Of a stretch of 64,000 nucleotides of DNA, positions 4,509-52,564 are shown piece after piece. Source of the DNA: a bacterium (GTDB lineage Bacteria; Zhuqueibacterota; QNDG01; JABMRT01); the NCBI GenBank assembly GCA_011046415.1, contig DSAP01000090.1, positions 4,590 to 68,589 on the forward strand. The letters run 5' to 3'. Numbering within the stretch: the stretch's first letter is position 1; every line of letters starts with the position of its first letter. Under the pieces are notes generated by a model. The model saw only the letters and a program-made list of their open reading frames with translations, was not told the origin of the DNA and did no database searches. The position numbers were made by a program, and so were the translations under genes.

Positions 4509-4682
4509 TTCCGTTTCCCCTCAGATATCCGGATTGTTTCTTCTTGGCTGAAACATTCCGAATAATGCAGTAAGGAATCAAAACAACGCAAACCCGATTC
4601 GCAGGCCGTCCGAAAGCTAATGAACCCGACGTTCAATGTCAAGCAAAAAAAGAGGCTTCTAATTGGTTGAATAATCGGAAAG

Positions 4683-20126: not shown

Positions 20127-20244
20127 GTCATCTTTCCGCATTGAAAAAACGAATCAAGTTATAAAAGAAAAGGCGCCCCTGCAAGTAAAAAAACCGGGTG
20201 ATCGGCTGCCAGTCCTGCAGGGATGAAATCAAACAGGCAGAAAA

Positions 20245-20336: not shown

Positions 20337-20352
20337 TGGCACACAGGTTGCA
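20337..20352 (+). promoter_or_regulatory. sigma-54 (-24/-12) promoter of the hsp20 operon
   Basis: TGGCAC-ACAGG-TTGCA: perfect GG-N10-GC spacing and near-consensus flanks, about 50 bp upstream of the first Hsp20 start. Confidence 0.6.
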
Positions 20353-20839: not shown

Positions 20840-21250
20840 GTGATCGCCATGGCTGAAAAGGCTGTTCAAAAAATGGAAAGCCAGGAAGTCGAACGGGTCG
20901 AACGAACCCGTTCAGGAAGGACTTTCCTGCCGCCGACGGACATCATCGAAACCGAAAGCGAGATCATTCTCCTTGCGGATATGCCGGGAGTCGATGAGAA
21001 GACCGTCGATATCATACTCGAGAATAAATTGCTGACGATTCAGGGGAATGTCGAAACCCGGGACGATAACAATCTCCAGACGGTGTATGCCGAATTCGAA
21101 TCCGGAGATTATTACCGCGCATTTACGCTGAGTGACGACATCGACCGGGAGAGGATCCAGGCCAAGCTGAAGAACGGCGTGCTGAAACTCGTTCTTCCCA
21201 AGGCGGAGACGGCGAAATCACGCAAGATTGCGGTCCACACCGGAGAATAA
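20840..21250 (+). CDS. Hsp20/alpha-crystallin small heat-shock protein
   Basis: Alpha-crystallin domain (IILLADMPGVDEKTVDI...NGVLKLVLPK). Confidence 0.85.
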   Translation: MIAMAEKAVQKMESQEVERVERTRSGRTFLPPTDIIETESEIILLADMPGVDEKTVDIILENKLLTIQGNVETRDDNNLQTVYAEFESGDYYRAFTLSDDIDRERIQAKLKNGVLKLVLPKAETAKSRKIAVHTGE

Positions 21251-39276: not shown

Positions 39277-40041
39277 ATGAAATCCCATTTTGAAAAACAC
39301 GTCCTGCGTCATCCTCCGTGGTATCCGATTTTAATCACCGCAACCCTTTTCTCGTTTTTGGGATGTCAACAATCCAGAAGGGAGAGCGCCATGCAGCAGG
39401 GAGAAGACCCGTATGTCAGACAAAGGCATGCGATGGTTTCAAAGCAGATCGCCGGCCGCGGGGTGAAGGATCCGCGTGTCCTGGCCGCGATGGAAAAGGT
39501 GCCGCGACATCTCTTCGTTCCCGACAACATCAGGTCGCACGCCTATGAGGACAGCCCCCTGCCGATCGGATACAATCAGACCATATCCCAGCCTTACATC
39601 GTGGCGTACATGACGGAGCAGCTTGTCCTGGAGGGCGACGAACGTGTTCTCGAGGTCGGTACGGGGAGCGGTTATCAGGCCGCCGTGCTGGCCGAACTGG
39701 TCCCTGAGGTGTATACGATCGAGATCATCGAACCCCTGTCGGTCACGGCACGGGAACAGATCGAGAAGGCGGGATTTGAGAACGTCCACTTCCGGGTCGG
39801 CGACGGATACCTGGGATGGCCGGAAGCCGCGCCGTTCGATGCGATCATGATCACGGCCGCTCCCAGGCAGATACCGGAAACGCTCATCGGCCAGCTCCGG
39901 GTTGGTGGAAGGATGATTGTTCCCGTCGGACAATGGCATCAGGAACTCCTCCTTATCACCAAAAAAGAAAAAGACTATTCCGTGAAGAAGCTCCTGCCCG
40001 TACGTTTCGTTCCCATGGTCCGATCCCGGTCTGATGAATGA
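39277..40041 (+). CDS. pcm: protein-L-isoaspartate O-methyltransferase with N-terminal lipoprotein-type signal peptide
   Basis: PIMT motifs (VLEVGTGSGYQAA, GDGYLGWPEAAPFDAI, GGRMIVPVG) preceded by a 40-aa extension MKSHFEKHVLRHPPWYPILITATLFSFLGC. Confidence 0.8.
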   Translation: MKSHFEKHVLRHPPWYPILITATLFSFLGCQQSRRESAMQQGEDPYVRQRHAMVSKQIAGRGVKDPRVLAAMEKVPRHLFVPDNIRSHAYEDSPLPIGYNQTISQPYIVAYMTEQLVLEGDERVLEVGTGSGYQAAVLAELVPEVYTIEIIEPLSVTAREQIEKAGFENVHFRVGDGYLGWPEAAPFDAIMITAAPRQIPETLIGQLRVGGRMIVPVGQWHQELLLITKKEKDYSVKKLLPVRFVPMVRSRSDE

Positions 40042-40195
40042 AACGACCGGCTTATCGTTTCAAGGCCGTTGTCCATATTCCCGATATCCCGGTCACGAAC
40101 CGGGATATCTTCCGGAGATGAAACATTATCGAGAAAATCCTGTAAAATATAATGGACTTATCAAAAAACTCTTAATCGAAGAAAGATCGGAAAAA

Positions 40196-40858
40196 ATGTC
40201 GCCTGCCGAAGGAAGAAAGTGGAGAAAGTCGGATTCGAACCGGATCATCGCCGGCGTCTGCGGGGGGCTGGCTGAGTATTTCAAGATCGATGCCACCGTT
40301 GTCCGTATTCTGTGGTTGGTTTCCATTTTTCTGAACGGCCTGGGTCTGCTCGCCTATCTGGTGGCGCTGGTGGTTTTGCCGGCCGCTTCGGATGATCCGG
40401 CGTCACGTGAAGGAGGCAGGAAATCCGGTTCCGGAGGCTGGCTTATTCTCGGTGTTCTGCTTATCCTCTTGGGTCTTTTCTGGGGGGTGCATAACTGGGG
40501 ATGGTACGCCGGGTTCCCCTGCCCGGGATTTACCCATTGGGGGAGGCAGGACTTCTGGCCGGTATTGCTGGTTGTCCTCGGTATTCTCTATCTGGTGCAT
40601 GTCCTCAAGGATTCGAAGGCCGGCGGCGGATCCGGCGGATCGTCCGGATCGACCAATACATCACGTTGGCCGTTTCATCGCACGACAGATGACCGGGTGA
40701 TCGGCGGGGTCTGCGGCGGACTGGCCCGGCATGTCCGCATCGATCCCACCCTGGTACGAATCGGAACCGTTGTTTTCGTACTGATGACGGGCGTCGTATT
40801 CGGCGTTTTGCTTTATGCGGCGGCCCTCGTCCTGATACCCGAAGAAAAGAAGGCATGA
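40196..40858 (+). CDS. membrane protein with two PspC domains
   Basis: RIIAGVCGGLAEYFKIDATVVRILWLV and again RVIGGVCGGLARHVRIDPTLVRIGTVVF, each followed by TM helices; start uncertain (40118 or 40196). Confidence 0.7.
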   Translation: MSPAEGRKWRKSDSNRIIAGVCGGLAEYFKIDATVVRILWLVSIFLNGLGLLAYLVALVVLPAASDDPASREGGRKSGSGGWLILGVLLILLGLFWGVHNWGWYAGFPCPGFTHWGRQDFWPVLLVVLGILYLVHVLKDSKAGGGSGGSSGSTNTSRWPFHRTTDDRVIGGVCGGLARHVRIDPTLVRIGTVVFVLMTGVVFGVLLYAAALVLIPEEKKA

Positions 40859-40885
40859 CCAGATGAAAAGATCTGGATTGGTTCC

Positions 40886-41428
40886 ATGAAAGAAGAAAAA
40901 CGTTCCATCATCCCCGGTGTCCTGCTCGTTTTGGCCGGTTTATGGTTGTTGTCACGCGATGTGATTCAACAACACGGTATCTGGGAACGCATTTATCCGC
41001 TTGTTATTCTGGTTTTTGCCGGATTTTACTTAATCGACTGGGTCCGCAGGAAAAAGGAGGACACCTTTTTCTGGGCTGTTTTCTTTCTGCTTACCGGCCT
41101 TTTCTATTTGTTGCGGAATTATGATTTAATTCCCTACCTCTATATCGAGGAGTACTGGCCGGTTTTTTTCCTTTTCTGGGGACTGGGTTATCTGGTACGT
41201 TTTTTTCTCCGTCCCGCCGAATGGAACATCCTGATTCCCGCCATCCTCTTCCTCTTTATGGGGGCCTTCTTTTTTTTACATGCGGCGGGTGGTGTTCTTG
41301 ATTTTCCCGATATTGAGATCGAGAAATACTGGCCCGCCGGTCTTATCGTCATCGGATGCGGGTTGTTGATCAGTGCATTATTCAAATCTTTAAAAAACAA
41401 TTCTGACCAGGGGCAGATTCGATCCTGA
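40886..41428 (+). CDS. polytopic membrane protein (LiaF-N-terminal-like/DUF5668-like), PspC partner
   Basis: 180 aa, five or six TM helices, Trp/Phe-rich; 27 bp after the PspC gene. Confidence 0.45.
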   Translation: MKEEKRSIIPGVLLVLAGLWLLSRDVIQQHGIWERIYPLVILVFAGFYLIDWVRRKKEDTFFWAVFFLLTGLFYLLRNYDLIPYLYIEEYWPVFFLFWGLGYLVRFFLRPAEWNILIPAILFLFMGAFFFLHAAGGVLDFPDIEIEKYWPAGLIVIGCGLLISALFKSLKNNSDQGQIRS

Positions 41429-41572: not shown

Positions 41573-44047
41573 TTGTCGATTTTCTTTAAAAAAGGAAAAG
41601 ATGCATCATTTGAAAAGGACCAGTCCCTTTCTTTCATTGCGTGGGGTGTGGGACAGGATTTCTATGCGGATGCCGTTCATCCCGAACAGCGCACCCAGAA
41701 ACTGCTCTCGGAGATACAGCGGCGTACTTTGGCCGATCAGGCACTGATTGCCGGTTCGAATTTCGACACTGAAACGCTCGAAATCCTGTATTGTGCCCCT
41801 CCCAAAGAACCTTCGCTTATCCAGCCGGATGTCATCCGGCTTTTGCTTGAGAAGGTATTCGTCGAAAATAAAATCCTCGATCTGAACGAATTCGCGGATA
41901 TCGATCCGGTCGTACGGTATCTGAAGGACAGTCAGGTTTCCTCGATTCTGATCTGCCCTCTCAATATCCACGAAAAAACCATCGAGGCGTTGATTGTCGT
42001 CAATTATTATGAGGGTCATGATAACCGGATGCAGGAGTTCATCCAATTCGTCTCCGCCACATTGGCCGTTTCGCTGCAGAACACGGGGCTCTATGCCATC
42101 CTCCATGACAAGGAAGAGGAAATTTCCGACTGGTCCGAACAGGTTGGCCAACGGATCGAGACCGACGCCAAACAATTTCTTGAAAAGGAATTTCAGTATT
42201 ACAATCTGTTTGAAGAAGCCCCCTATGGCATCATCGTCCATAGCATCGAAGGGCGTATTCTTGAGGCCAACCAGGCCGCCCGTCAGATTCTCGGGTATGA
42301 CAAAAAAGGCCTTTTAGAGAAGAAATGGTCGGATCTCGTCGAAGAAGACCTGGATGTCCGGCTGAATACTTTCTTTGCGGATATTTTGCGTACCCAGAAA
42401 GCCGGCACCCTCGAAATTTCGTTCATAAAAAAAGACGGAACACAGTTCTGGGCGGATCTCTGTTCTCAGCGGGTCAGGCTTCACGGAAAGATCGCCCTCG
42501 AGACCTTTATCCGGGATATCTCTCAGCAAAAGGTGCGAGAGGCGGAATTGCAGGACAAGCAAAATAAATATGAGGTTTTCGTCGAGTCGTCTCTGGTCGG
42601 TGCGTATGTGATCCAGAATGGACGCATCCATTTCACCAATGAGAAATTCGAAGAATTATGCGGATTTCCGAAAAAAGAACTCTTTGACAGTGAGTTTATT
42701 CAACTGATCGCCCCGGAAGACCGGAGCATGGTTTTGAGTCGCGAGATGCGCAGGGAGAAGGGTGATAGTGTTCCCGATCAATATGAAATCCGTTTTCTTA
42801 AAAAAGATGAGGAACGCTGGTGGGGCGAAGTGCGTTGCCGGAGGATCGAAGTGGATGGCAACCCGGCTATACTCGGTAATGTGATCGATGTCACCCAGCG
42901 AAAACGCCTCGAAGTTCAGCTTCTTGAAAGCCAGAAAATGGAATCCATCGGCACGCTCGCCGGTGGCATCGCCCATGATTTTAATAACCTCCTCGGCGGT
43001 ATCCTGGGATATGCATCGCTGTTGATGAGTGATATGCCCAAAGATCACATCTATTTTGAAGACATCCATACTATCGCAGAAACCGCCAAAAAGGCAGCGG
43101 ACCTTACCAACCGGCTCCTGGCCTTTGCGCGGGGCGGCAAATATCAGGTGACAGCGATCGACAGCAACCGAATTGTGGATGATGTGGTGGCCATTCTTTC
43201 CAGAACCGTCGACCGTTCAATCGCCATAGAAACCCATCTGGTAAAGAACTTATGGCATATCAAGGGGGATTCCCAGCAGATTCATCAGGCGTTTCTCAAT
43301 ATTTGTCTCAATGCGATCGAGGCCATGCCGGGCGGTGGAAAACTGATGATATCCACGGCGAACGTTATCCTGGACGAAGCGTTCGCACAGGCACAGATGG
43401 GGGGCAGTCCCGGTGATTACGTGCGGATTACCGTAAGCGACACCGGCATCGGCATGGACGAGAAAACCAGACGTCGGATTTTCGAACCCTTCTTTACCAC
43501 CAAACCCGCCCAGGCGGCCAAAGGCCTCGGACTCGCCATGGTTTACGGCATTGTGAAAAATCATGAGGGCGCAGTTCTTGTAGACAGCGTGCTGGGGAGC
43601 GGCAGTAAATTTACACTCTATTTTCCGAAATATACGGAGGAGGAGAGTCCGGAGCCTGAATCCGGTGAACCGGTTCTTTCTGCCAAAAAGGGGACAGTGC
43701 TGCTCGTCGACGATGAAGCGGTCATTCGCCGTGTGGCCAAACGGATGCTCGAGAGAGGGAACTATGAGGTGATTTCGGCCAAGGACGGCCAGGAGGCGCT
43801 GGCGATTTATGAAGAAAGACAAAAAGATATTCATCTGGTGCTGATCGACCTGATCATGCCGGGAATGAACGGGACCGAAACGGTTGAAAAGCTGAAGAAG
43901 ATCAATCCCGATATCAAAGTCATTTATACCAGCGGATACGGTCTCGGCGATCATCCCGAACTGCAACATCACAATGTGGACATGTTTATCCAGAAACCGT
44001 TTCAGACTGAAATCCTGATCGAGAAAGTCGCGCAGCTGCTTTCCTGA
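41573..44047 (+). CDS. hybrid sensor histidine kinase (GAF-like, two PAS, HisKA, HATPase_c, receiver)
   Basis: H-box IAHDFNNLLGGILGYASLL; N/G1/F/G2 boxes (NAIEAM, DTGIGM, FEPFFTTK, GLGLAMV); C-terminal receiver with phospho-Asp in VLIDLIMPGMNG. TTG start. Confidence 0.85.
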   Translation: MSIFFKKGKDASFEKDQSLSFIAWGVGQDFYADAVHPEQRTQKLLSEIQRRTLADQALIAGSNFDTETLEILYCAPPKEPSLIQPDVIRLLLEKVFVENKILDLNEFADIDPVVRYLKDSQVSSILICPLNIHEKTIEALIVVNYYEGHDNRMQEFIQFVSATLAVSLQNTGLYAILHDKEEEISDWSEQVGQRIETDAKQFLEKEFQYYNLFEEAPYGIIVHSIEGRILEANQAARQILGYDKKGLLEKKWSDLVEEDLDVRLNTFFADILRTQKAGTLEISFIKKDGTQFWADLCSQRVRLHGKIALETFIRDISQQKVREAELQDKQNKYEVFVESSLVGAYVIQNGRIHFTNEKFEELCGFPKKELFDSEFIQLIAPEDRSMVLSREMRREKGDSVPDQYEIRFLKKDEERWWGEVRCRRIEVDGNPAILGNVIDVTQRKRLEVQLLESQKMESIGTLAGGIAHDFNNLLGGILGYASLLMSDMPKDHIYFEDIHTIAETAKKAADLTNRLLAFARGGKYQVTAIDSNRIVDDVVAILSRTVDRSIAIETHLVKNLWHIKGDSQQIHQAFLNICLNAIEAMPGGGKLMISTANVILDEAFAQAQMGGSPGDYVRITVSDTGIGMDEKTRRRIFEPFFTTKPAQAAKGLGLAMVYGIVKNHEGAVLVDSVLGSGSKFTLYFPKYTEEESPEPESGEPVLSAKKGTVLLVDDEAVIRRVAKRMLERGNYEVISAKDGQEALAIYEERQKDIHLVLIDLIMPGMNGTETVEKLKKINPDIKVIYTSGYGLGDHPELQHHNVDMFIQKPFQTEILIEKVAQLLS

Positions 44048-44113: not shown

Positions 44114-44129
44114 TGGAACAAGGTTTGCT
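44114..44129 (+). promoter_or_regulatory. possible sigma-54 promoter (TGGAAC-N5-TTGCT) upstream of hybrid kinase 2
   Basis: Correct GG-N10-GC spacing; -24 deviates from the consensus (A for C after GG); about 90 bp upstream of the start. Confidence 0.3.
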
Positions 44130-44220
44130 TTTCGGTTAAGAGATCATGGATTCTCTGACTGTTAATGTGTTTTGATAAAGACGGCGGTGTTCAGCAGGAT
44201 GCTATCCGGAAACTTTGTCT

Positions 44221-46668
44221 ATGCAGATAAGTCCAGATAAAACAGAAATCTCGGATGGTCTTCTCTCCGAGCGGCTACTCGAAGAACTCTATTCGAAGGC
44301 AGATATCCTGTATTTTCTGCTGGACGATCAATTCCAGATTGTTTCATGCAATGTCACGGCACAGGAAAAAATGGGCCATGACAAAAAACAACTGGCCGGA
44401 AAAAAATTCCTCGATCTGGTTCCGAAAATCGATCAGGCCGATTTTGAGAAAAAACTCCAGATATGTGCGACCAAAGGTTATCTGCGACATTTCATCGCCT
44501 CGCTGCGCGACCATCACAACAAATCGATCGATGTCGGCGTCAACGGGTTGTTGATCGTTTCAGAGGATGGCGGTCAGTCACATTTACGGCTTTTTATCAA
44601 GGATATTTCGGAGCAGGTACGCAATGCACGACAGCGTCTCCTCTCCACCCAGATTCTGCAATATCTGACTCAAAAGCCAAAAGAGAAAGATGCCATTCGT
44701 TATCTGCTTCGTGAAATCTGGGAAAGCCGCCTCTCGACCGGTCTCGGAATCTTTCTTGAGGATTCCTTCGGCAAGAAATTTTCTCTCGGCACATGGGGGA
44801 ATCTCGGATCCAGTTCCGAGAATACGTTTTCCGAACAACCCGCATGGAATCCCCGTAAATGGACGCGGGTCCGGGATGCGGTCAGGGATATTTTTTCTGT
44901 CCGGTGGACGGATCACGGCAGTTTCTGGGTCGATTCCCTGTCCGATGTGGTTCTTGAGCTGGAAAATTTTCCGGAAAAGGATAATCTGCTCGCGTTGTCC
45001 GATTATGAATCCCTGGCCATCTTCCCCCTCAACACGAAGACCTATTCAGGCTATCTCGTTCTGACGCACACAGCCTATGGGCGCTGGGATCGTGAGGATG
45101 TCGAGTTCTTTGAGTCGCTGATTACATCCCTGTTGCTGCTCGAATCCGAAACTCCCATTGACGACGTAGCCTTTTCTGCACCCCAACCGACTGCGTTCCT
45201 CCAACAGATACCGTTTATCGGGGTGCTGTATATTCAGAAAGGCCGGATCCGGTTTGCCAACCCCTGGATGCATGAAGTCCTCGGTTTTTCGGAGGAAGAA
45301 TTCCTCGATAAACCGGTTCTGGATATCGTGGAACCGGCTTATCATGAAGTTGCCGAGAATCTGACGGTTGAGATCCGGTCTGAAGCGCATCATTCCCGGT
45401 GTTGGGAAATCGGATTCAGGGACAGCGAGGGCAAATCCCGGCTGACGGACTGTGTTGTCGCGCCCTGCGAGAAGGACGGATCTCAAATCTGGTACCTCAA
45501 CGCCAGGGAATCCGTTCAAAAAGACGAGGAAGACGAATCCGTCAAGGCCAGGAAACTGGAATCTCTCGGCACCCTGACAGACGGTATCGTGCATGATTTT
45601 AACAATGTACTGTCGAATCTAATGGGCTACAGTTCACTTTTAAGCGAAGAGGTTCCCAAAGACAGTCCTTATTACGAGGATGTTCAGGAGATCGCCAAAA
45701 CAAGCGAAAAGGCCTCCCAACTCACCAGCCGTTTGCTTTCATTCACCCAGGACAAACCCCATGTCGTCAAGGATCTGAATATAAACGGCCTTATTACCGA
45801 GGTGGCCGGGGTTCTCTCGCGGACGATCGAAAAAAACATCACGATCCAGGCTGAACTCGACGATCAACTCAAATGCATCGAGGGAGACGCCGGCCAGATT
45901 CAGCAGGCTTTTCTTCAGGTGGCATTCAACGCACGAGATGCCATGCCGATGGGAGGGAAACTGCGTTTTCAAACCCGCAACATGAGTCTCAGTGAAAATG
46001 CGGCCAAACATCAGAACGGTGCGAAATCCGGAGAATACGTCCAGATTATTATCAGTGATACGGGACAGGGGATGAACGCCAAGATCAGGGAGCAGGTTTT
46101 CAACGCCCAGTTCTCCACCAAAAACCAATCGGGACGTGGATATGGATTGACCCTTGTCCAGGATGTCGTCCAGAAGCATCAGGGATTTATATCGGTCTTC
46201 AGCGATATGACAAAAGGCACCATTTTTAAAATCCATTTCCCGGCCGCCGAGAAGACTGTGAGGGAAATCTCGAACCCCGTTCCTTATTCGCATGCTCACA
46301 CACGCGAGACCATCCTTCTTATAGAAGATCAAACGAAATTCCGTGAGAGTGCCATTAAGATGCTGAGTCATTACGGATACAAGGTGATCGGCGCAGAGAA
46401 TCCGAATGAGGCCATGGCGATCTACAAAAAATACATAAACCGAATCGATGTGGTCATTCTCCAGATGATTTCACCGGGTGTGGAGGTTCAGAAAATACTG
46501 GCCGCGCTTAAGAAAATCAACCCGGCGGTCCGTATTATCGCTTCAGCCAATCCGGGCGAAGATGCGTTAATAGATCCGCGTCTCCGAAAATATTTTGCAG
46601 GTTTTGTCCAGAAGCCTTTCGACCAACGCCTGCTTCTCCGCGAGATTCAGGGTGTCATGAACGCCTGA
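44221..46668 (+). CDS. hybrid-type sensor histidine kinase (PAS, HisKA, HATPase_c, C-terminal pseudo-receiver)
   Basis: H-box IVHDFNNVLSNLMGYSSLL; intact N/G1/G2 boxes (NARDAM, DTGQGM, GYGLTLV). The C-terminal receiver has Gln in place of the phospho-accepting Asp (VVILQMISPG). Confidence 0.8.
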   Translation: MQISPDKTEISDGLLSERLLEELYSKADILYFLLDDQFQIVSCNVTAQEKMGHDKKQLAGKKFLDLVPKIDQADFEKKLQICATKGYLRHFIASLRDHHNKSIDVGVNGLLIVSEDGGQSHLRLFIKDISEQVRNARQRLLSTQILQYLTQKPKEKDAIRYLLREIWESRLSTGLGIFLEDSFGKKFSLGTWGNLGSSSENTFSEQPAWNPRKWTRVRDAVRDIFSVRWTDHGSFWVDSLSDVVLELENFPEKDNLLALSDYESLAIFPLNTKTYSGYLVLTHTAYGRWDREDVEFFESLITSLLLLESETPIDDVAFSAPQPTAFLQQIPFIGVLYIQKGRIRFANPWMHEVLGFSEEEFLDKPVLDIVEPAYHEVAENLTVEIRSEAHHSRCWEIGFRDSEGKSRLTDCVVAPCEKDGSQIWYLNARESVQKDEEDESVKARKLESLGTLTDGIVHDFNNVLSNLMGYSSLLSEEVPKDSPYYEDVQEIAKTSEKASQLTSRLLSFTQDKPHVVKDLNINGLITEVAGVLSRTIEKNITIQAELDDQLKCIEGDAGQIQQAFLQVAFNARDAMPMGGKLRFQTRNMSLSENAAKHQNGAKSGEYVQIIISDTGQGMNAKIREQVFNAQFSTKNQSGRGYGLTLVQDVVQKHQGFISVFSDMTKGTIFKIHFPAAEKTVREISNPVPYSHAHTRETILLIEDQTKFRESAIKMLSHYGYKVIGAENPNEAMAIYKKYINRIDVVILQMISPGVEVQKILAALKKINPAVRIIASANPGEDALIDPRLRKYFAGFVQKPFDQRLLLREIQGVMNA

Positions 46669-46775: not shown

Positions 46776-46804
46776 TTGACAATCATCCCTGAAGGTTGTA
46801 TTAT
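46776..46804 (+). promoter_or_regulatory. sigma-70-like promoter (TTGACA-N17-TATTAT) for the leuA/cimA-like gene
   Basis: Consensus -35, 17-nt spacer, near-consensus -10; about 55 bp upstream of the start. Confidence 0.45.
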
Positions 46805-46861
46805 TTTTATTCTGCGGGGAATGACTCTGAAAAAAATCATTTTTTGTGTAGGGAAAATGCT

Positions 46862-48424
46862 ATGGCTGAAAAAGTGATGATCATGGACACCACATTGCGT
46901 GACGGTGAACAAATGCGCAATGTCAGTTATTCATCCGAAGAAAAACTCAGTGTCGCACGGATATTGCTCGATGAAGTCAGGGTATATCGCATCGAGATCG
47001 CCAGCGCCCGCGTCAGTGAGGGAGAACAAAAAGCCGCCCAAAAAGTGCTTCAGTGGTCCAAATCGGCCGGTTATCTCGACCGGGTCGAGATCCTCGGTTT
47101 TACGGATCATACGAAATCGGTCGATTGGATCGGCGGCATCGGCGGCAAGGTAATCAACCTGCTCGCGAAGGGCGACAGGCAGCATGCCGAAACCCAGCTT
47201 GGAAAAACCAAGGAAGAACATGTGGCGGATATCCTGAAGACGATCTCCTATGCGTCCGATCAGGGATTTATCTGCAATATCTACCTCGAAGCCTGGTCAC
47301 ATGGTATGATCCGATCGCGGGATTATGTCTATTATCTGATCGATGCGATCAAAGACACCCCCATTGTCCGATATATGCTCCCGGATACGCTCGGTATCCT
47401 GTCGCCGAGCCAGGTGGCCCAATTCACCCGGGATATGATCGACCGGTACGGTGACATCGGGTTTGATTTTCACGCCCATGATGATTACGGAGTCTCCGTA
47501 GCCAATACGCTCACCGCCGTGGAGAACGGTATCCGCTGCGTGCACACGACCATCAACGGCATGGGTGAGCGGGCCGGCAATGCGCCTCTGGATGAGGTCG
47601 TGGTCGGCATCCATGATTTTCTGAAAATGGAAACAGATGTCGATGAGAAACAACTTTACCATGCCAGTCAAACCGTATCGATTTATTCGAGCTGCCGTAT
47701 CGCATTCAACAAGCCGATTTCCGGTCCCAATGTGTTTACACAGACGGCCGGTATTCACGCCGACGGCGATAAAAAAGGGAACCTTTACTCGAGCCAGTTG
47801 CACCCCGATCGGTTTGACCGGGCCTATGAATACGCCTTGGGTAAATTGAGCGGAAAATCCAGCCTGGATTACAACCTCGATAAGATGGGCATCACACTCA
47901 GTTCCGCACAGAAAAAGAAAGTGCTTGAGCGTGTGATTCTGCTCGGAGACCGCAAGGAATCCATCACCGAGGCGGATCTGCCTTATATCATCTCGGATGT
48001 GCTTGAGACGCCGCAGGACAAGACGTTCGAATTCCTTTCATCCGTAATCGTGACCAGCATCGGGTTGAGGGCCGTGGCCGCGGTCAAATTGCGGTACCAG
48101 AATCCGGATACGCAAAAAACCGAGGAATGGGAAGAGAATGCCAGCGGCGACGGCGGCTATGATGCCTTTATGAACGCCATCCGGTCGATCGCAGGCAAGA
48201 TCCGGATCGAACTCCCGCGGCTGGCCGATTATACGGTTTCCATCCCGCCCGGTGGAAAAACCGATGCGCTGGTTCAGTGCGCCATCATCTGGGAATTGGA
48301 TGAACGGCGTTTTGTGACGCGTGGGTTGAATTCGGATCAGGTCCTGGCCGCCGCCGAAGCCACTGAGAAGATGCTGAATTTAATTACGTTACCCCACCGT
48401 TCTAAACAGAAGGCCGAGCCATAG
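46862..48424 (+). CDS. 2-isopropylmalate synthase / (R)-citramalate synthase family (LeuA/CimA)
   Basis: HMGL-like TIM barrel beginning IMDTTLRDGEQ, metal ligands HAHDDYG...HTTINGMGERAGNA, C-terminal LeuA-dimerisation/regulatory domain; about 520 aa. Confidence 0.8.
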   Translation: MAEKVMIMDTTLRDGEQMRNVSYSSEEKLSVARILLDEVRVYRIEIASARVSEGEQKAAQKVLQWSKSAGYLDRVEILGFTDHTKSVDWIGGIGGKVINLLAKGDRQHAETQLGKTKEEHVADILKTISYASDQGFICNIYLEAWSHGMIRSRDYVYYLIDAIKDTPIVRYMLPDTLGILSPSQVAQFTRDMIDRYGDIGFDFHAHDDYGVSVANTLTAVENGIRCVHTTINGMGERAGNAPLDEVVVGIHDFLKMETDVDEKQLYHASQTVSIYSSCRIAFNKPISGPNVFTQTAGIHADGDKKGNLYSSQLHPDRFDRAYEYALGKLSGKSSLDYNLDKMGITLSSAQKKKVLERVILLGDRKESITEADLPYIISDVLETPQDKTFEFLSSVIVTSIGLRAVAAVKLRYQNPDTQKTEEWEENASGDGGYDAFMNAIRSIAGKIRIELPRLADYTVSIPPGGKTDALVQCAIIWELDERRFVTRGLNSDQVLAAAEATEKMLNLITLPHRSKQKAEP

Positions 48425-48535
48425 GATAGAAGGGTACGATCGGTGCCCGGCATCCTATTCCGCTAGGCAAAAAATTCTTGATTCTTGCGTCCAATTGTTT
48501 ATATTGGTTAAACATTCAATCCGGCGGGTCGATCG

Positions 48536-49213
48536 ATGGATATTTTTGAAGGCAGACAGGCTATTCGTGAACGGCTGTTGTCTGATGCCACCCATCGCAT
48601 GAAAAATATCATGGGTGGGATCAGCGGTTTTGCGGCTTTGATTTTAAAAGATTTAGACGAAGGATCGCATCATTATCCTTTGGTCGAACGGATTCAGGAA
48701 AATGTCATTCGCCTCGATCAGTTCCTCCTGGATGTCATGACTTTGGTTCGGGAACGGACAATGTATTCCGAGACCATCGATCTGCCGAGTACAGTCAGGG
48801 ACGTGTGTGTGAATCATTATGCGGATCCGGCCGACGACAACCCTGACTATCCCTTCAAGATCGAATCATCTCCATCGAGAATTCCGTTCAGGGCCGATCC
48901 GTTACTCATACGAAACGGATTATATCATGCGCTTCAGATTGTGGATGCGCTTTCGAGTAAAATCGAAACACTTCGGATCGAATCCGATGACGCGGCCGTG
49001 TCATTGCGTTATATCTTTGTCTGTGACAAATCCCTCAATGCCTTAAAGGAAGATATTCTGGCCGGATTGGGCAGCATTGAATCCGTCGATATACAACTGT
49101 CTCTCGCAGTCTGTCTGAAATTGATGCGGATGCACCAAGGGGAAGTTCAGATCGACCATCTGGACGGAAAACGCTGGATTTTCCTTCTGCGGTTCAGTCT
49201 GAATGACAGATGA
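48536..49213 (+). CDS. histidine-kinase-like protein with H-box but degenerate ATP-binding domain (no sensor)
   Basis: DHp helix HRMKNIMGGISGFAALIL, but the downstream region lacks DxGxG (G1) and GxGLGL (G2); 225 aa; directly upstream of the NtrC-family regulator. Confidence 0.5.
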   Translation: MDIFEGRQAIRERLLSDATHRMKNIMGGISGFAALILKDLDEGSHHYPLVERIQENVIRLDQFLLDVMTLVRERTMYSETIDLPSTVRDVCVNHYADPADDNPDYPFKIESSPSRIPFRADPLLIRNGLYHALQIVDALSSKIETLRIESDDAAVSLRYIFVCDKSLNALKEDILAGLGSIESVDIQLSLAVCLKLMRMHQGEVQIDHLDGKRWIFLLRFSLNDR

Positions 49214-49354: not shown

Positions 49355-50728
49355 ATGGGCGCCGAACAGAAACGCATACTTGTCGTCGATGATGAAGATG
49401 TGATCAGGGAGCTTCTTTTCGAGATGCTTCAACGCAAATCGTACACCGTGGAAACCGCACCCACGGGCAAGGCCGCATTGCAGATGGCCGAGGAGAAGGC
49501 TTACGACCTGATCGTGAGTGATATCCGGCTTCCCGATGTGAGCGGAATGAAGATTCTCGACCGGCTCAAGAAGAAACAGCCGGATTTGGGCATCATTCTC
49601 ATCACGGCGTACGGCTCGATCAAGAACGCGGTGCGCGCCATGAAACAGGGGGCGTTCGATTATATCACAAAGCCCTTTGATCTGGATGAAATCGAATTGG
49701 TCATCGATAAGTATTTTGAATATCAGAATCTGGTCGTCGAGAACCAGTATCTCCGCTCGGAACTCGACAGGAAGTTCAGCTTCGAGAACATCGTCGGCGC
49801 CAGCGACCCCATGCAGCGTGTCTTCGATTCCATCCGCATGGTGGCCAGAAGCAGGGCCACGGTGCTGATTCAGGGATCCAGCGGCACAGGCAAAGAACTG
49901 GTGGCACGGGCGATTCATTACAACAGCGACCGCAAACACCGGGCTTTCATCACGACCAACTGCGCCGCGCTTCCCGAAGGACTGGTCGAAAGTGAACTGT
50001 TCGGCCATGAGAAAGGCGCATTCACCGGTGCCTATAGAACAAACATCGGGCGCTTCGAAATGGCCGACGGCGGCACCATTCTGCTCGACGAAGTCAGCGA
50101 AATCAGTCTGCCGCTTCAGGCCAAATTGCTCCGGGTCATCCAGGAGCGGGAAATCGAGAGAGTCGGAGGCGGGAAGCTCATTCCGGTGGACGTGCGAATC
50201 ATAGCGACCACCAACCGCAACCTGAAAGAGGAGGTCGAGAAAGATAACTTCCGTGCCGATCTCTTTTATCGGCTCAATGTGGTGCCGATCTATTTACCCC
50301 CGTTGTCCGAGAGACGCGAGGATATTCCCCTTCTGATCAAGTATTTCGTTCATAAATTTGCCGCAGAGAACGGGAGTCCCCTTAAATCCGTCTGCGAAGA
50401 GGCCATGCACATGTTGACCGAGAGAGATTGGCCCGGCAATGTCCGCGAAGTCGAGAACGCGGTGGAGAGAGCCGTGGTCATGAGCGGGCCGGACGTCAAT
50501 AACCTTGAATCCAAACATTTCTTTTTCTCGGATCAGTCCGAAGCCGCTTCTTCGTTTAAAATGGAGACCGGCCAGATGACGCTGCATGATATGGAGAAAA
50601 ACCTGATTCTCAAGACACTGAGAGAGAACGCGGATAATCGGACCAAAACGGCCGAGATTCTCGGAATCAGCGTACGTACGCTCCGCAATAAATTGAACGA
50701 GTACCGGGCCGACGGTATCACGGTTTAG
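49355..50728 (+). CDS. sigma-54-dependent response regulator / bacterial enhancer-binding protein (NtrC family)
   Basis: Receiver domain (phospho-Asp in DLIVSDIRLPDVSG), AAA+ sigma-54 activator domain (GSSGTGKELVARAIH, ESELFGHEKGAFTGA), C-terminal Fis-type HTH. Confidence 0.9.
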   Translation: MGAEQKRILVVDDEDVIRELLFEMLQRKSYTVETAPTGKAALQMAEEKAYDLIVSDIRLPDVSGMKILDRLKKKQPDLGIILITAYGSIKNAVRAMKQGAFDYITKPFDLDEIELVIDKYFEYQNLVVENQYLRSELDRKFSFENIVGASDPMQRVFDSIRMVARSRATVLIQGSSGTGKELVARAIHYNSDRKHRAFITTNCAALPEGLVESELFGHEKGAFTGAYRTNIGRFEMADGGTILLDEVSEISLPLQAKLLRVIQEREIERVGGGKLIPVDVRIIATTNRNLKEEVEKDNFRADLFYRLNVVPIYLPPLSERREDIPLLIKYFVHKFAAENGSPLKSVCEEAMHMLTERDWPGNVREVENAVERAVVMSGPDVNNLESKHFFFSDQSEAASSFKMETGQMTLHDMEKNLILKTLRENADNRTKTAEILGISVRTLRNKLNEYRADGITV

Positions 50729-50969
50729 CCTGAATCATCCCTTTCCTGAGGGATCTGGTGGAATTGAAAACCGAAGTTTGTGAATAGATGAGGGATTGGA
50801 TCGGGACTGAACCGTAACCGACTGTGGACTGTGCTTTTCCGGTTAATCAGGAAAAGGCAGGCCGAACAAAGCCGTATTTTTCACAATAAACCACGTTTCA
50901 AATTATAAACACACTGCACAGATCGGCAATTCTCTCCTGATCAATGGAAAGAAACCTTATCAGTGTTTT

Positions 50970-50984
50970 CTGATTCTGAATCAG
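50970..50984. promoter_or_regulatory. 15-bp perfect palindrome CTGATTC-T-GAATCAG, candidate enhancer site about 70 bp upstream of the 51050 sigma-54 promoter
   Basis: Perfect inverted repeat in a 400-bp AT-rich intergenic region. Confidence 0.3.
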
Positions 50985-51049: not shown

Positions 51050-51065
51050 TGGCATGGATGTTGCT
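51050..51065 (+). promoter_or_regulatory. sigma-54 (-24/-12) promoter for the receiver / REC-PAS-HisKA operon
   Basis: TGGCAT-GGATG-TTGCT with GG-N10-GC spacing, about 60 bp upstream of the 51124 start. Confidence 0.5.
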
Positions 51066-51123: not shown

Positions 51124-51492
51124 GTGGAACCGGTCAAACATGTGCTGTTTGTCGATGATGAAGAGGAAGTCCTGAAAATCCTTGTGGATTATTTTTCGGA
51201 TACCGGGTATGCGTTGCATGTGGCCACCGGGGCCGAAGATGCGCTCAGGATCATCGGAGAAACGCCGATCGATCTGGTTTTTTCCGATCTCCGGCTCAAG
51301 GACGGCCTCGGAACGGATTTGCTGAACACGGTTAAGAAGACATACCCGGGGGCTCTCCGTGTCCTCACATCCGGGTATCTGGATATTCGCTTCGGAAAAA
51401 TTCAGGAAGACCAGGTGGACGGTACCCTGTATCTATCCAAGCCCTGGAACCTGGCAACGCTGAAGACCCTTATCGCCCAGCGGATTGGATGA
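51124..51492 (+). CDS. single-domain response regulator (CheY-like receiver)
   Basis: DDEEEV acidic pocket, phospho-Asp in DLVFSDLRL, conserved Lys in SKPW; GTG start. Confidence 0.7.
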   Translation: MEPVKHVLFVDDEEEVLKILVDYFSDTGYALHVATGAEDALRIIGETPIDLVFSDLRLKDGLGTDLLNTVKKTYPGALRVLTSGYLDIRFGKIQEDQVDGTLYLSKPWNLATLKTLIAQRIG

Positions 51493-52564
51493 ACACGTGG
51501 CTCAGAAGAAGAAAATCGTTTTTATCGACAACAAATCGGCATATCGGAAGATCGCGAAAGAGGCATTTCAATCGACACCCTATGAATGTGTGATATGCAA
51601 GACGGGGCAGGACGGATTGAATACGATCGCCTCCGTGCATCCCGATCTGGTGGTTGTCGAGGCTTTTCCTCCCGACATGTCCGGGGAAGAGATCTATCTG
51701 CAGTTTCTCTCCAATCCGGAATACCGCAACCTGAGGAAAATCCCGTTTATCGTCCTGACCGAGAATGGACATGTGGACCGGTCCCGGCTCTACGGCATGG
51801 GGTTCAGCGCCTGTATGAGAAAGCCGTTTAAAGCCAGAGAACTGATCGAGTTTGTCGAGGATGCCCTGGTCTCCCATCAAATCAAAATGGAAGAGATGTA
51901 TTGCTGGGAAACCATCCGCGAGGCCAAGGATTTTCTGGAACGCGTCGTTGAGACTTCTCTCGATGCCATCGTGACGACGGACAACGGCGGTATCATTACC
52001 TATTGCAACCGTGCCTGCGAAGAAATGCTTGGTTACAGCTTTCAGGAATTGATCGGCAAACGTGTCAGTCAGTTTCTGGTTTGCGGCGCCTCGGAGCTCC
52101 TAAAAATCAGCGCCTATCTGCGCAAACGCAATCAACTTCAGAATTATAAGACCGTGATCATCGGGAACAGAAATCAGAAGGTCTCCATCAATCTTTCCCT
52201 CTCGACGATGCGTGATTCCGAGGGAAAAGTCATGGGCGCCCTGGGGATCGCGAAAGAGACCGGGGGTGAAAAATTTGCCGAATATGATTCCCTGGCTTCG
52301 GGCCGTCTCGCGACCGTAGTCGAAACCGCCGTAGCCGTCAATCACGCGGTGAACAATCCGCTGGTGCCGATACTCGGGAATGCCCAGTTCTTGCTCCAGG
52401 ACGACAGGCTGATGGACGAGGACATCCGCCGCCGGCTCCGCGTGATCGTCAAGAATGCGTTGCGGATCCGTGATATCACACAGAAGTTGGCCAGCATATC
52501 CCATCCCGTGACCAAGGAATATCTCAAGGGCACCCGGATGCTGGACATCGACGCATCGACCTGA
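51485..52564 (+). CDS. atypical receiver-PAS-HisKA protein lacking the HATPase_c catalytic domain
   Basis: Receiver with Glu instead of phospho-Asp (DLVVVEAFPPDMSG), PAS (ETSLDAIVTTDNGGIITYCNRACEEMLGY), HisKA H-box (VNHAVNNPLVPILGNAQFLL); ends about 70 aa after the His. Confidence 0.6.
   Translation: MDEHVAQKKKIVFIDNKSAYRKIAKEAFQSTPYECVICKTGQDGLNTIASVHPDLVVVEAFPPDMSGEEIYLQFLSNPEYRNLRKIPFIVLTENGHVDRSRLYGMGFSACMRKPFKARELIEFVEDALVSHQIKMEEMYCWETIREAKDFLERVVETSLDAIVTTDNGGIITYCNRACEEMLGYSFQELIGKRVSQFLVCGASELLKISAYLRKRNQLQNYKTVIIGNRNQKVSINLSLSTMRDSEGKVMGALGIAKETGGEKFAEYDSLASGRLATVVETAVAVNHAVNNPLVPILGNAQFLLQDDRLMDEDIRRRLRVIVKNALRIRDITQKLASISHPVTKEYLKGTRMLDIDAST

Follow-up and report, generated by a model that had tools for sequence, protein, structure and literature searches.

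A sensor-less, kinase-like protein beside a sigma-54 regulator

The gene psHK lies at 48536..49213 of a 64,000-nucleotide stretch of bacterial DNA (the window), which spans positions 4,590 to 68,589 of the forward strand of contig DSAP01000090.1 (assembly GCA_011046415.1) and comes from a bacterium placed by GTDB in the Zhuqueibacterota. Coordinates are those of the window, and all genes, domains and promoters located by them are on its + strand. The gene is an intact open reading frame (ORF) for a sensor-less, histidine-kinase-like protein of 225 aa. This protein consists of a dimerization and histidine phosphotransfer (DHp) domain and a degenerate domain that resembles the catalytic and ATP-binding (CA) domain of kinases. 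The DHp helical hairpin occupies 48557..48748 (residues 8-71). Its phospho-acceptor, His20, is the CAT codon at 48593..48595, with Arg21 at H+1 and Asn24 at H+4. The CA-like alpha/beta domain (48767..49201, residues 78-222) has no ATP-binding motifs. The sites where these motifs once stood can still be located: the former N-box at 48896..48946, the former G1 at 49016..49030, the former ATP lid, modelled as two ordered helices, at 49031..49084, and the former G2, which now reads VDIQLSLA, at 49085..49108. Downstream, at 49355..50728, is the gene for a sigma-54 regulator with a receiver (REC) domain, a sigma-54 AAA+ domain and HTH_8, the presumed terminal acceptor. A first-pass annotation of the locus had paired psHK with an NtrC-family regulator, and these domains bear out the pairing.

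There is no space in front of psHK for an N-terminal sensor or membrane segment, since an in-frame TAA (48509..48511) is found 8 codons 5' of the ATG and the LeuA-like gene 5' of psHK, which ends at 48424, is only 111 bp away. With the DHp domain beginning at residue 8, the original description of the protein as sensor-less is correct. The possibility that psHK is a pseudogene or carries a frameshift was ruled out by the intact ORF, its preserved length, the upstream stop codon and the existence of 70 homologues with a strongly conserved DHp domain.

The H-box of psHK is the peptide HRMKNIMGGISGFAALIL (residues 20-37). Pfam detects HisKA alone in the protein, at 28.0 bits with a cut-off of 26.9. 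No Pfam match was obtained to HATPase_c, even at E<=1, to Hpt (PF01627), or to the HisKA_2 and HWE_HK models. The strings DxGxG, GxGxG and GxGLG are absent anywhere in the psHK sequence, which agrees with the first report that DxGxG and GxGLGL are missing. Membership in the HisKA_2/HWE group, suggested by the 'HRxKN' string, was ruled out by Pfam, and the likeness goes no further than H-[KR]-x-K-N. The H-box had also been described as canonical, which holds in part: it is of the HisKA type and has the phospho-His, but H+1 is Arg and H+5 is Ile, positions occupied by Glu and Pro, respectively, in 64/64 sister kinases.

Comparison with NCBIfam gave weak full-length similarity to ZraS and AtoS and nothing more. 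When PDB sequences were searched with phmmer, the whole of psHK aligned to ThkA (3a0r, E 3.6e-4) and ZraS (9jfj). Because these alignments are full-length, the C-terminal 145 residues of psHK are homologous to a CA domain. In the alignments to both structures, Ile135 takes the place of the N-box Asn, F-V-C-D-K, starting at Phe161, stands at the D-x-G-x-G of G1, and Val-Asp-Ile-Gln-Leu-Ser-Leu-Ala (184-191) is found at G2, where D-I-Q-L-S-L-A lies over G-T-G-L-G-L-A.

Loss of the ATP-binding residues across the psHK family

A word-indexed homologue search found only 6 relatives of psHK. These have 43-64% identity and 202-227 aa, and all carry the same substitutions. An exhaustive profile search against 1.84 billion representatives was needed to reveal the family. 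At E<=1e-10 it returned 58 proteins, of which about 55 are short but full-length (207-257 aa); DxGxG or GxGLG is present at the motif positions in none of these. The hits below the family were mostly kinases of at least 400 aa, most of which have both motifs. A second scan covered one genome per species, scored against the psHK family profile. Family members scored >190 bits, with ORFs of ~220-290 aa when counted from the first possible start, and all of them but one lack a G1- or G2-like string. Canonical sister kinases in the same scan scored <=129 bits, and the complete ones are 317-625 aa long with both G1 and G2 present.

The psHK family defined in this way contains about 55 clusters and 70 distinct sequences, which were compared with 64 intact sister kinases. 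Both groups keep the phospho-His (70/70 and 64/64) and the Asn at H+4 (70/70 and 64/64) without exception. At H+1, Lys or Arg is found in 68/70 family members versus Glu in 64/64 sister kinases, and the Pro at H+5 is present in 0/70 versus 64/64. The N-box Asn that serves Mg/ATP is likewise retained by no family member (0/70, with Phe in 60) and by every sister kinase (64/64). The same is true of the G1 Asp (0/70 versus 64/64) and the two G1 glycines (0/70 versus 64/64 each), while the three G2 glycines occur in 1, 0 and 0 of the 70 sequences versus 64/64 each in the sister kinases. In the psHK family none of the N, G1, F and G2 motif groups survives: bulky or charged residues have taken the place of the Gly, and a new conserved motif, E/D-A-R/K-L-S-L-A, occupies the former G2. 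The first-pass annotation had allowed that an intact N/G1/G2 site might have been mis-aligned and had suggested a survey of homologues for the same degeneration. Such a site was looked for in this comparison and not found (0/70 versus 64/64, apart from one Gly at the first G2 position), and loss of the ATP motifs is fixed across the 70 members.

Among 56 family members, Pfam recognizes HisKA in 53, HATPase_c in 2, weakly, and HisKA_2 in 1, also weakly (E 0.0039). Mean pairwise identity in the family is 51% in the DHp domain versus 19.5% in the CA-like domain. This difference indicates that selection is concentrated on the phosphotransfer helix, with the CA-like domain kept as a scaffold. The family appears to be restricted to a KSB1-like lineage. 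The DnaB encoded in the window has 77% identity to a protein of a candidate division KSB1 MAG, and all its other close hits with an organism name say just 'bacterium'. In public databases the proteins of the psHK family carry the labels 'HAMP domain-containing histidine kinase' or 'bacteriophytochrome' and, therefore, automated kinase counts and signalling reconstructions are wrong for this gene.

Predicted structure and ancestry

A structure comparison had been suggested as a further check on the degenerate domain. The AlphaFold2 model of psHK from a 56-sequence alignment has a predicted local distance difference test (pLDDT) score of 94.4 and a predicted template modelling (pTM) score of 0.87. 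It superseded a first model from 6 sequences, in which the pLDDT of the DHp domain was ~50. The predicted structure is a helical hairpin (8-39, 47-71) followed by an alpha/beta sandwich, which is the histidine kinase core fold. Residues 166-183, which correspond to the flexible lid over ATP in kinases, form two short, confident helices in the model. psHK fits the layout of a DHp phosphotransferase, with a His-bearing hairpin and a kinase-like alpha/beta domain that has no nucleotide site, and this fold differs from the monomeric four-helix bundle of histidine phosphotransfer (HPt) domains. ChpT and Spo0B show no sequence homology to psHK in Pfam or PDB sequences, and their fold similarity to it is weak. 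The psHK family is an independent derivative of HisKA kinases and not a relative of the known phosphotransferases.

The nearest intact relatives of psHK are ZraS/AtoS-type kinases, with ZraS (9jfj, E 1.8e-13) and ThkA as its closest matches by sequence. The partner of the regulator had been called NtrB-like at first, but the closest intact kinases are of the ZraS/AtoS type and not NtrB proper. The intact sister kinases come from the FCB-group phyla KSB1, Zixibacteria, Latescibacterota, Cloacimonadota, Fibrobacterota and Gemmatimonadota. They share with the psHK family the DHp signature GGIxGFAxLLxRDL, in the helix that docks the response regulator, and they have the same class of downstream partner. 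Unlike psHK, they have sensor and transmembrane regions, and the N, G1, F and G2 motifs together with Glu at H+1 are present in 64/64. A sigma-54 response regulator is encoded directly 3' of 59/66 sister kinases, and 4 more are at contig ends. Since the sister kinases adjoin this class of regulator, the psHK DHp domain descends from its cognate partner. psHK is derived from the kinase half of an ordinary pair of kinase and sigma-54 regulator, and it has kept its position beside the regulator.

The psHK gene cluster

A psHK family member was found at 17 loci from distinct genomes, the window included. Of the other loci, 15 reach far enough in the 3' direction to show what follows psHK, and in every one of them a sigma-54 regulator comes directly next; where complete it is ~457 aa long and has REC, sigma-54 AAA+ and HTH_8 domains. 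The two genes are separated by 141 bp in the window and by <=~12 bp, or overlap, in the other loci. Most loci have the same gene order on one strand: PspC-domain protein, LiaF-like protein, a first hybrid histidine kinase (HHK1, ~825 aa), a second one (HHK2, ~815 aa) and psHK, followed by the sigma-54 regulator, a single REC protein (~122 aa), a REC-PAS-DHp protein (~355 aa), a UPF0164-like protein and YicC. The synteny of HHK1, HHK2, psHK, the sigma-54 regulator, REC and REC-PAS-DHp spans ~15 species-level genomes. The locus had been read as a two-component pair. The regulator does adjoin psHK, but the real unit is a module of 8-10 genes and not a gene pair.

HHK1 (41573..44047) is a PAS-PAS-HisKA-HATPase_c-REC hybrid kinase with H468 and REC D759. 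Its kinase core is closest to that of CckA (5idj, E 7e-43). Every ortholog has an intact receiver (D759), and its FATGUY-like motif reads YTSGY in the window and FTSGY in most orthologs. In HHK2 (44215..46668), Gln750 replaces the acceptor Asp of the receiver (VVILQMISPG) in the window organism only, while Asp is present in 10/10 orthologs. The window HHK2, therefore, cannot relay via its own receiver. Neither HHK1 nor HHK2 has an HPt domain, both ending in REC, in a search that covered these two proteins; both, therefore, need an external His carrier. The single-domain receiver REC122 (51124..51492) has an intact acceptor site and the FATGUY-like string LTSGY, and by analogy it is a candidate for a Spo0F/SdrG-like intermediary. 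The F-x-[ST]-G-Y 'FATGUY' motif has been described for the CckA receiver, SdrG, MrrA and Sma0114, and intermediary receivers with this motif work with DHp-type phosphotransferases (PMC9981736).

At the other end of the proposed chain, the sigma-54 regulator of the window has intact D12/D13, D56, T84, K106, Walker A and GAFTGA, with the usual ITAYG, and its acceptor residues are conserved across the family loci. With these residues intact and conserved, the regulator needs a phosphodonor. The receiver residues of the regulators in family loci and in canonical loci were also compared, with nothing discriminating between them. The cluster has the layout of a phosphotransferase pathway: hybrid kinases that lack HPt, a single REC protein, and D56 intact in the terminal regulator.

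A second ATPase-less His protein is encoded in the psHK cluster. This REC-PAS-DHp protein (51485..52564) has no CA domain at all. Its H-box, VNHA[IV]NNPLVPILGNAQFLLQ, contains an invariant His (VNHA[IV]NNPL), and the H-box and the tail HPVTKEYLxGTRMLDIDAS are almost invariant between the window and the orthologs (L005, L007-L009, L011, L012, L014, L015, L017 and L022). The acceptor position of its receiver is Glu in the window and D, E, S or N among the orthologs, and this domain is often a putative pseudo-receiver.

The pair of PspC-domain and LiaF-like membrane proteins (40034..41428) is encoded directly upstream of HHK1. Both genes are found 5' of HHK1 in the window and 5 other loci. These neighbours hint at a possible response of the soluble PAS hybrid kinases to envelope stress, and they are a possible input side. 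The gene directly 5' of psHK (46796..48424) encodes a LeuA/citramalate-synthase-like protein with HMGL-like and LeuA_dimer domains. It lies between HHK2 and psHK in the window, and a LeuA-like gene is also directly 5' of psHK in L004 (2289..3833). Locus L005 begins too near psHK to judge whether it has the same insertion.

psHK as a proposed DHp-type phosphotransferase

We propose that psHK is a dimeric histidine phosphotransferase of the DHp type, which evolved from a ZraS/AtoS-like kinase by loss of the sensor and of all ATP-binding residues, and we assign this reading a probability of about 0.58. A role in phosphatase or phosphotransfer reactions instead of kinase activity was already put forward in the first-pass annotation, and it is now supported by sequence, model structure and synteny. 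Of these two roles, phosphotransfer is the one favoured by the conserved context. Judging from these sequences, psHK would be phosphorylated and would pass the phosphate on in the following way. The CckA-like kinases HHK1 and HHK2 would autophosphorylate with ATP, and the phosphoryl group would move to an intermediary receiver, which could be the REC of HHK1 (D759) and/or REC122, with the REC of HHK2 unable to take part here (Gln750). His20 of psHK would take the phosphoryl group from this receiver and transfer it to the neighbouring sigma-54 activator, at Asp56. The activated regulator would then switch on sigma-54 promoters, including those inside the cluster.

Transfer between His and Asp is reversible. 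Since psHK also retains the Asn at H+4, it may be bifunctional like PhyT and could remove phosphate from the regulator whenever the kinases are inactive. For HisKA kinases, kinase activity alone depends on the acid at H+1, and phosphatase activity alone on the Thr or Asn at H+4 (PMC3510030). Loss of the acid at H+1 combined with retention of Asn at H+4 is what would be expected of an ATP-independent protein that still carries out His-Asp chemistry.

Several points weigh against this proposal. The hybrid kinases could phosphorylate the regulator directly, and HPt domains were sought in these two proteins. The invariant Asn at H+4 suits a phosphatase equally well. A basic residue at H+1 is also found in active HisKA_2/HWE kinases (HRxxN) and is alone no proof that kinase activity was lost; for this reason, it is the CA motifs, and not H+1, that argue against kinase activity. 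The role of the FATGUY motif is unresolved in the literature (PMC9981736). Linkage within the cluster is not absolute either, as the hybrid kinases of L004 are not adjacent to the LeuA-like gene and psHK, which have different genes upstream, and the LeuA-like gene is inserted in the window clade.

If the hybrid kinases did phosphorylate the regulator directly, psHK could be a dedicated phosphatase of the regulator (or of REC122) that acts through Asn24. This alternative is unlikely. On its side, Asn is present at H+4 in 70/70 family members, and the acid at H+1 that serves the kinase reaction only is lost (PMC3510030). The DHp surface inherited from the cognate kinase of sigma-54 regulators is retained, PhyP/PhyT was first read as a phosphatase, and RedE acts as a phosphatase on RedF. 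PhyT, however, once held to be a phosphatase, proved to be a phosphotransferase. A phosphatase would also leave the HPt-less hybrid kinases and their FATGUY-like receivers without an onward carrier, and the strictly invariant His points to a phospho-intermediate. Phosphatase activity is, in any case, compatible with psHK being a phosphotransferase. The invariant His bears equally on the idea that psHK is a non-catalytic pseudokinase, which binds the regulator or a kinase stoichiometrically as in NifL-NifA, RetS-GacS and DivL. A CA-like domain of constant length with the new E-A-R-L-S-L-A motif does suggest binding, but phosphochemistry is favoured by the 51% identity of the DHp domain and by a His and an Asn that never vary. 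Unlike NifA, the regulator has a complete and conserved receiver site, and DivL has lost its His, which the psHK family never has. We consider this alternative quite improbable.

The remaining two alternatives keep an ATP-dependent step at psHK. In one of them, psHK is the substrate of a split kinase: the intact CA domain of HHK1 or HHK2 phosphorylates His20 in trans within a hetero-complex, and psHK then becomes the kinase of the regulator. psHK is co-operonic with HHK2 in most loci, with all genes on one strand, and the dead receiver of the window HHK2 (Gln750) leaves the output of its CA and DHp domains unassigned. This alternative is nonetheless very improbable. Lys or Arg stands at H+1 instead of the acid on which ATP-dependent His phosphorylation relies in HisKA kinases, the HHK2 receiver is intact in 10/10 orthologs, and the DHp families differ (HDFNN-type versus HK[IM]KN-type), such that a heterodimer would not be expected. 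The other possibility, that psHK has kept autokinase activity by means of a non-canonical nucleotide site, is hardly credible. The fold is intact and confidently predicted and H-R/K-x-x-N is similar to the H-box of active HisKA_2/HWE kinases, but only 1/56 members matches HisKA_2, and weakly. Moreover, N, G1, F and G2 are all replaced, the Gly positions are bulky or charged, and the lid region is modelled as ordered helices.

Comparison with known systems

To our knowledge, few phosphotransferases made from degenerate kinases have been characterized (Spo0B, ChpT and PhyT, with RedE related), and all of these are from Firmicutes or Proteobacteria. A degenerate kinase that serves as a His carrier is a kind of protein already known. 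No description of the family, of its origin from a sigma-54 pair, of its sigma-54 terminal regulator or of the multi-gene cluster was found in the literature searched. If our reading is true, this solution would have arisen once more, independently, with the psHK family in an uncultured lineage of the FCB group (probably KSB1). The 64 intact sister kinases and 70 degenerate members provide an unusually clean before/after comparison. They are, therefore, a good case for seeing how a two-component pair becomes a multi-step relay and which residues change.

Spo0B, from the KinA-Spo0F-Spo0B-Spo0A relay of Bacillus sporulation, is similar to psHK: it is a dimeric four-helix bundle whose kinase-like C-terminal domain makes no use of ATP. 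The role of Spo0F in the psHK cluster could fall to REC122. In contrast to psHK, which has a HisKA-type H-box, Spo0B has no sequence match to it in Pfam or PDB, and the class of output regulator differs. In the LuxN/LuxQ to LuxU to LuxO pathway of Vibrio quorum sensing, several HPt-less hybrid kinases feed one His carrier, which serves a sigma-54 regulator of the NtrC type. The logic of the LuxU-LuxO circuit resembles the relay proposed for psHK by analogy, although LuxU is a monomeric HPt bundle (PF01627) and psHK has the kinase-core fold of DHp and CA-like domains.

ChpT (PDB 4fpp, 4qpj), of the CckA-ChpT-CtrA/CpdR pathway of Alphaproteobacteria, is like psHK a sensor-less protein of ~210-225 aa. 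It combines a phospho-His DHp hairpin with a Bergerat-like domain unable to bind ATP, it does not autophosphorylate, and where kinases have the ATP lid it has helix turns, which close off the pocket (PMC3433190). ChpT is fed by the HPt-less CckA, and HHK1 is CckA-like with a FATGUY-like motif in its receiver, as in the CckA REC. The differences are that psHK comes from ZraS/AtoS-like HisKA kinases, that its host belongs to a different phylum (probably KSB1), and that its acceptor is a sigma-54 activator instead of the OmpR-type CtrA.

PhyT/PhyP, of the general stress response in Alphaproteobacteria, has a degenerate ATPase domain and an H-R-x-x-N H-box, as psHK does. PhyT takes phosphate from the FATGUY receiver SdrG and passes it to a terminal regulator, and it is a negative regulator too (PMC5898713). 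Unlike psHK, which is soluble, sensor-less and derived from HisKA, PhyT is anchored in the membrane, has a periplasmic domain and falls in the HWE/HisKA_2 lineage. RedE, from the RedCDEF system of Myxococcus, is a kinase-like protein in a multi-gene two-component cluster. It cannot autophosphorylate; its phosphate comes from a receiver protein, after which it works as a phosphatase (PMC2755868). The output of RedCDEF, in contrast to that of the psHK cluster, is a single-domain regulator and not a sigma-54 activator.

Promoters and regulatory sites

A sigma-70-like promoter, TTGATT-16-TATATT, is located 5' of psHK at 48478..48505 and is conserved in the window, L004 and L005. It is preceded by a conserved CTAGGCAAAA box in the window clade. 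In ten other family loci a sigma-54 element, TGGCA[TC]G[AG]TTTnnGCA, takes its position 5' of psHK. Two sigma-54 -24/-12 elements are present in the window cluster: TGGAACAAGGTTTGCT (44114..44129) is 5' of HHK2 and conserved in 8/10 loci, and TGGCATGGATGTTGCT (51050..51065) is 5' of the REC122 gene and conserved in 13/14 loci. L017 and L022 have one sigma-54 element, located 5' of HHK1 instead. A consensus scan of the whole window gave 20 sigma-54 matches versus 19.8 expected, which is not above chance, so the three sites are credible because their position is conserved across orthologous loci and for no other reason. Due to these conserved elements, the signalling genes look sigma-54-dependent and are probably autoregulated. 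No sigma-54 element was seen 5' of the PspC/LiaF-like genes.

In most aligned loci (L006-L014), a GC-rich, terminator-like hairpin with a T-run is present just 3' of HHK2 and before the psHK sigma-54 promoter. HHK2 and the psHK-regulator genes would, therefore, be separate transcription units in those genomes.

A more speculative reading, which we consider unlikely, is that the cluster forms a new self-activating, multi-branch phosphorelay. Of its two ATPase-less DHp proteins, psHK and the REC-PAS-DHp protein, one would load and the other unload the activator, the CA-like surface of psHK with E-A-R-L-S-L-A in place of the G2 glycines would dock or sense FATGUY receivers, and the 2-3 sigma-54 promoters would provide positive feedback in a push-pull arrangement.

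An inverted repeat, GG[CA]AA-N3-TTGCC, was found ~100 bp 5' of the REC122 sigma-54 promoter in 13 loci (for example, at position 3074 of L007, 9931 of L008 and 6280 of L011). It may be an enhancer-binding site. As a shared enhancer site it was rejected, since it is degenerate in the window (~50955..50975) and not found at the other two promoters; it cannot, therefore, tie all the promoters to one regulator. Elsewhere in the window, the sole perfect TGGCAC-N5-TTGCA is at 20337..20352 (+), apparently in an intergenic region between ORFs that end at 20141 and start at 21228.

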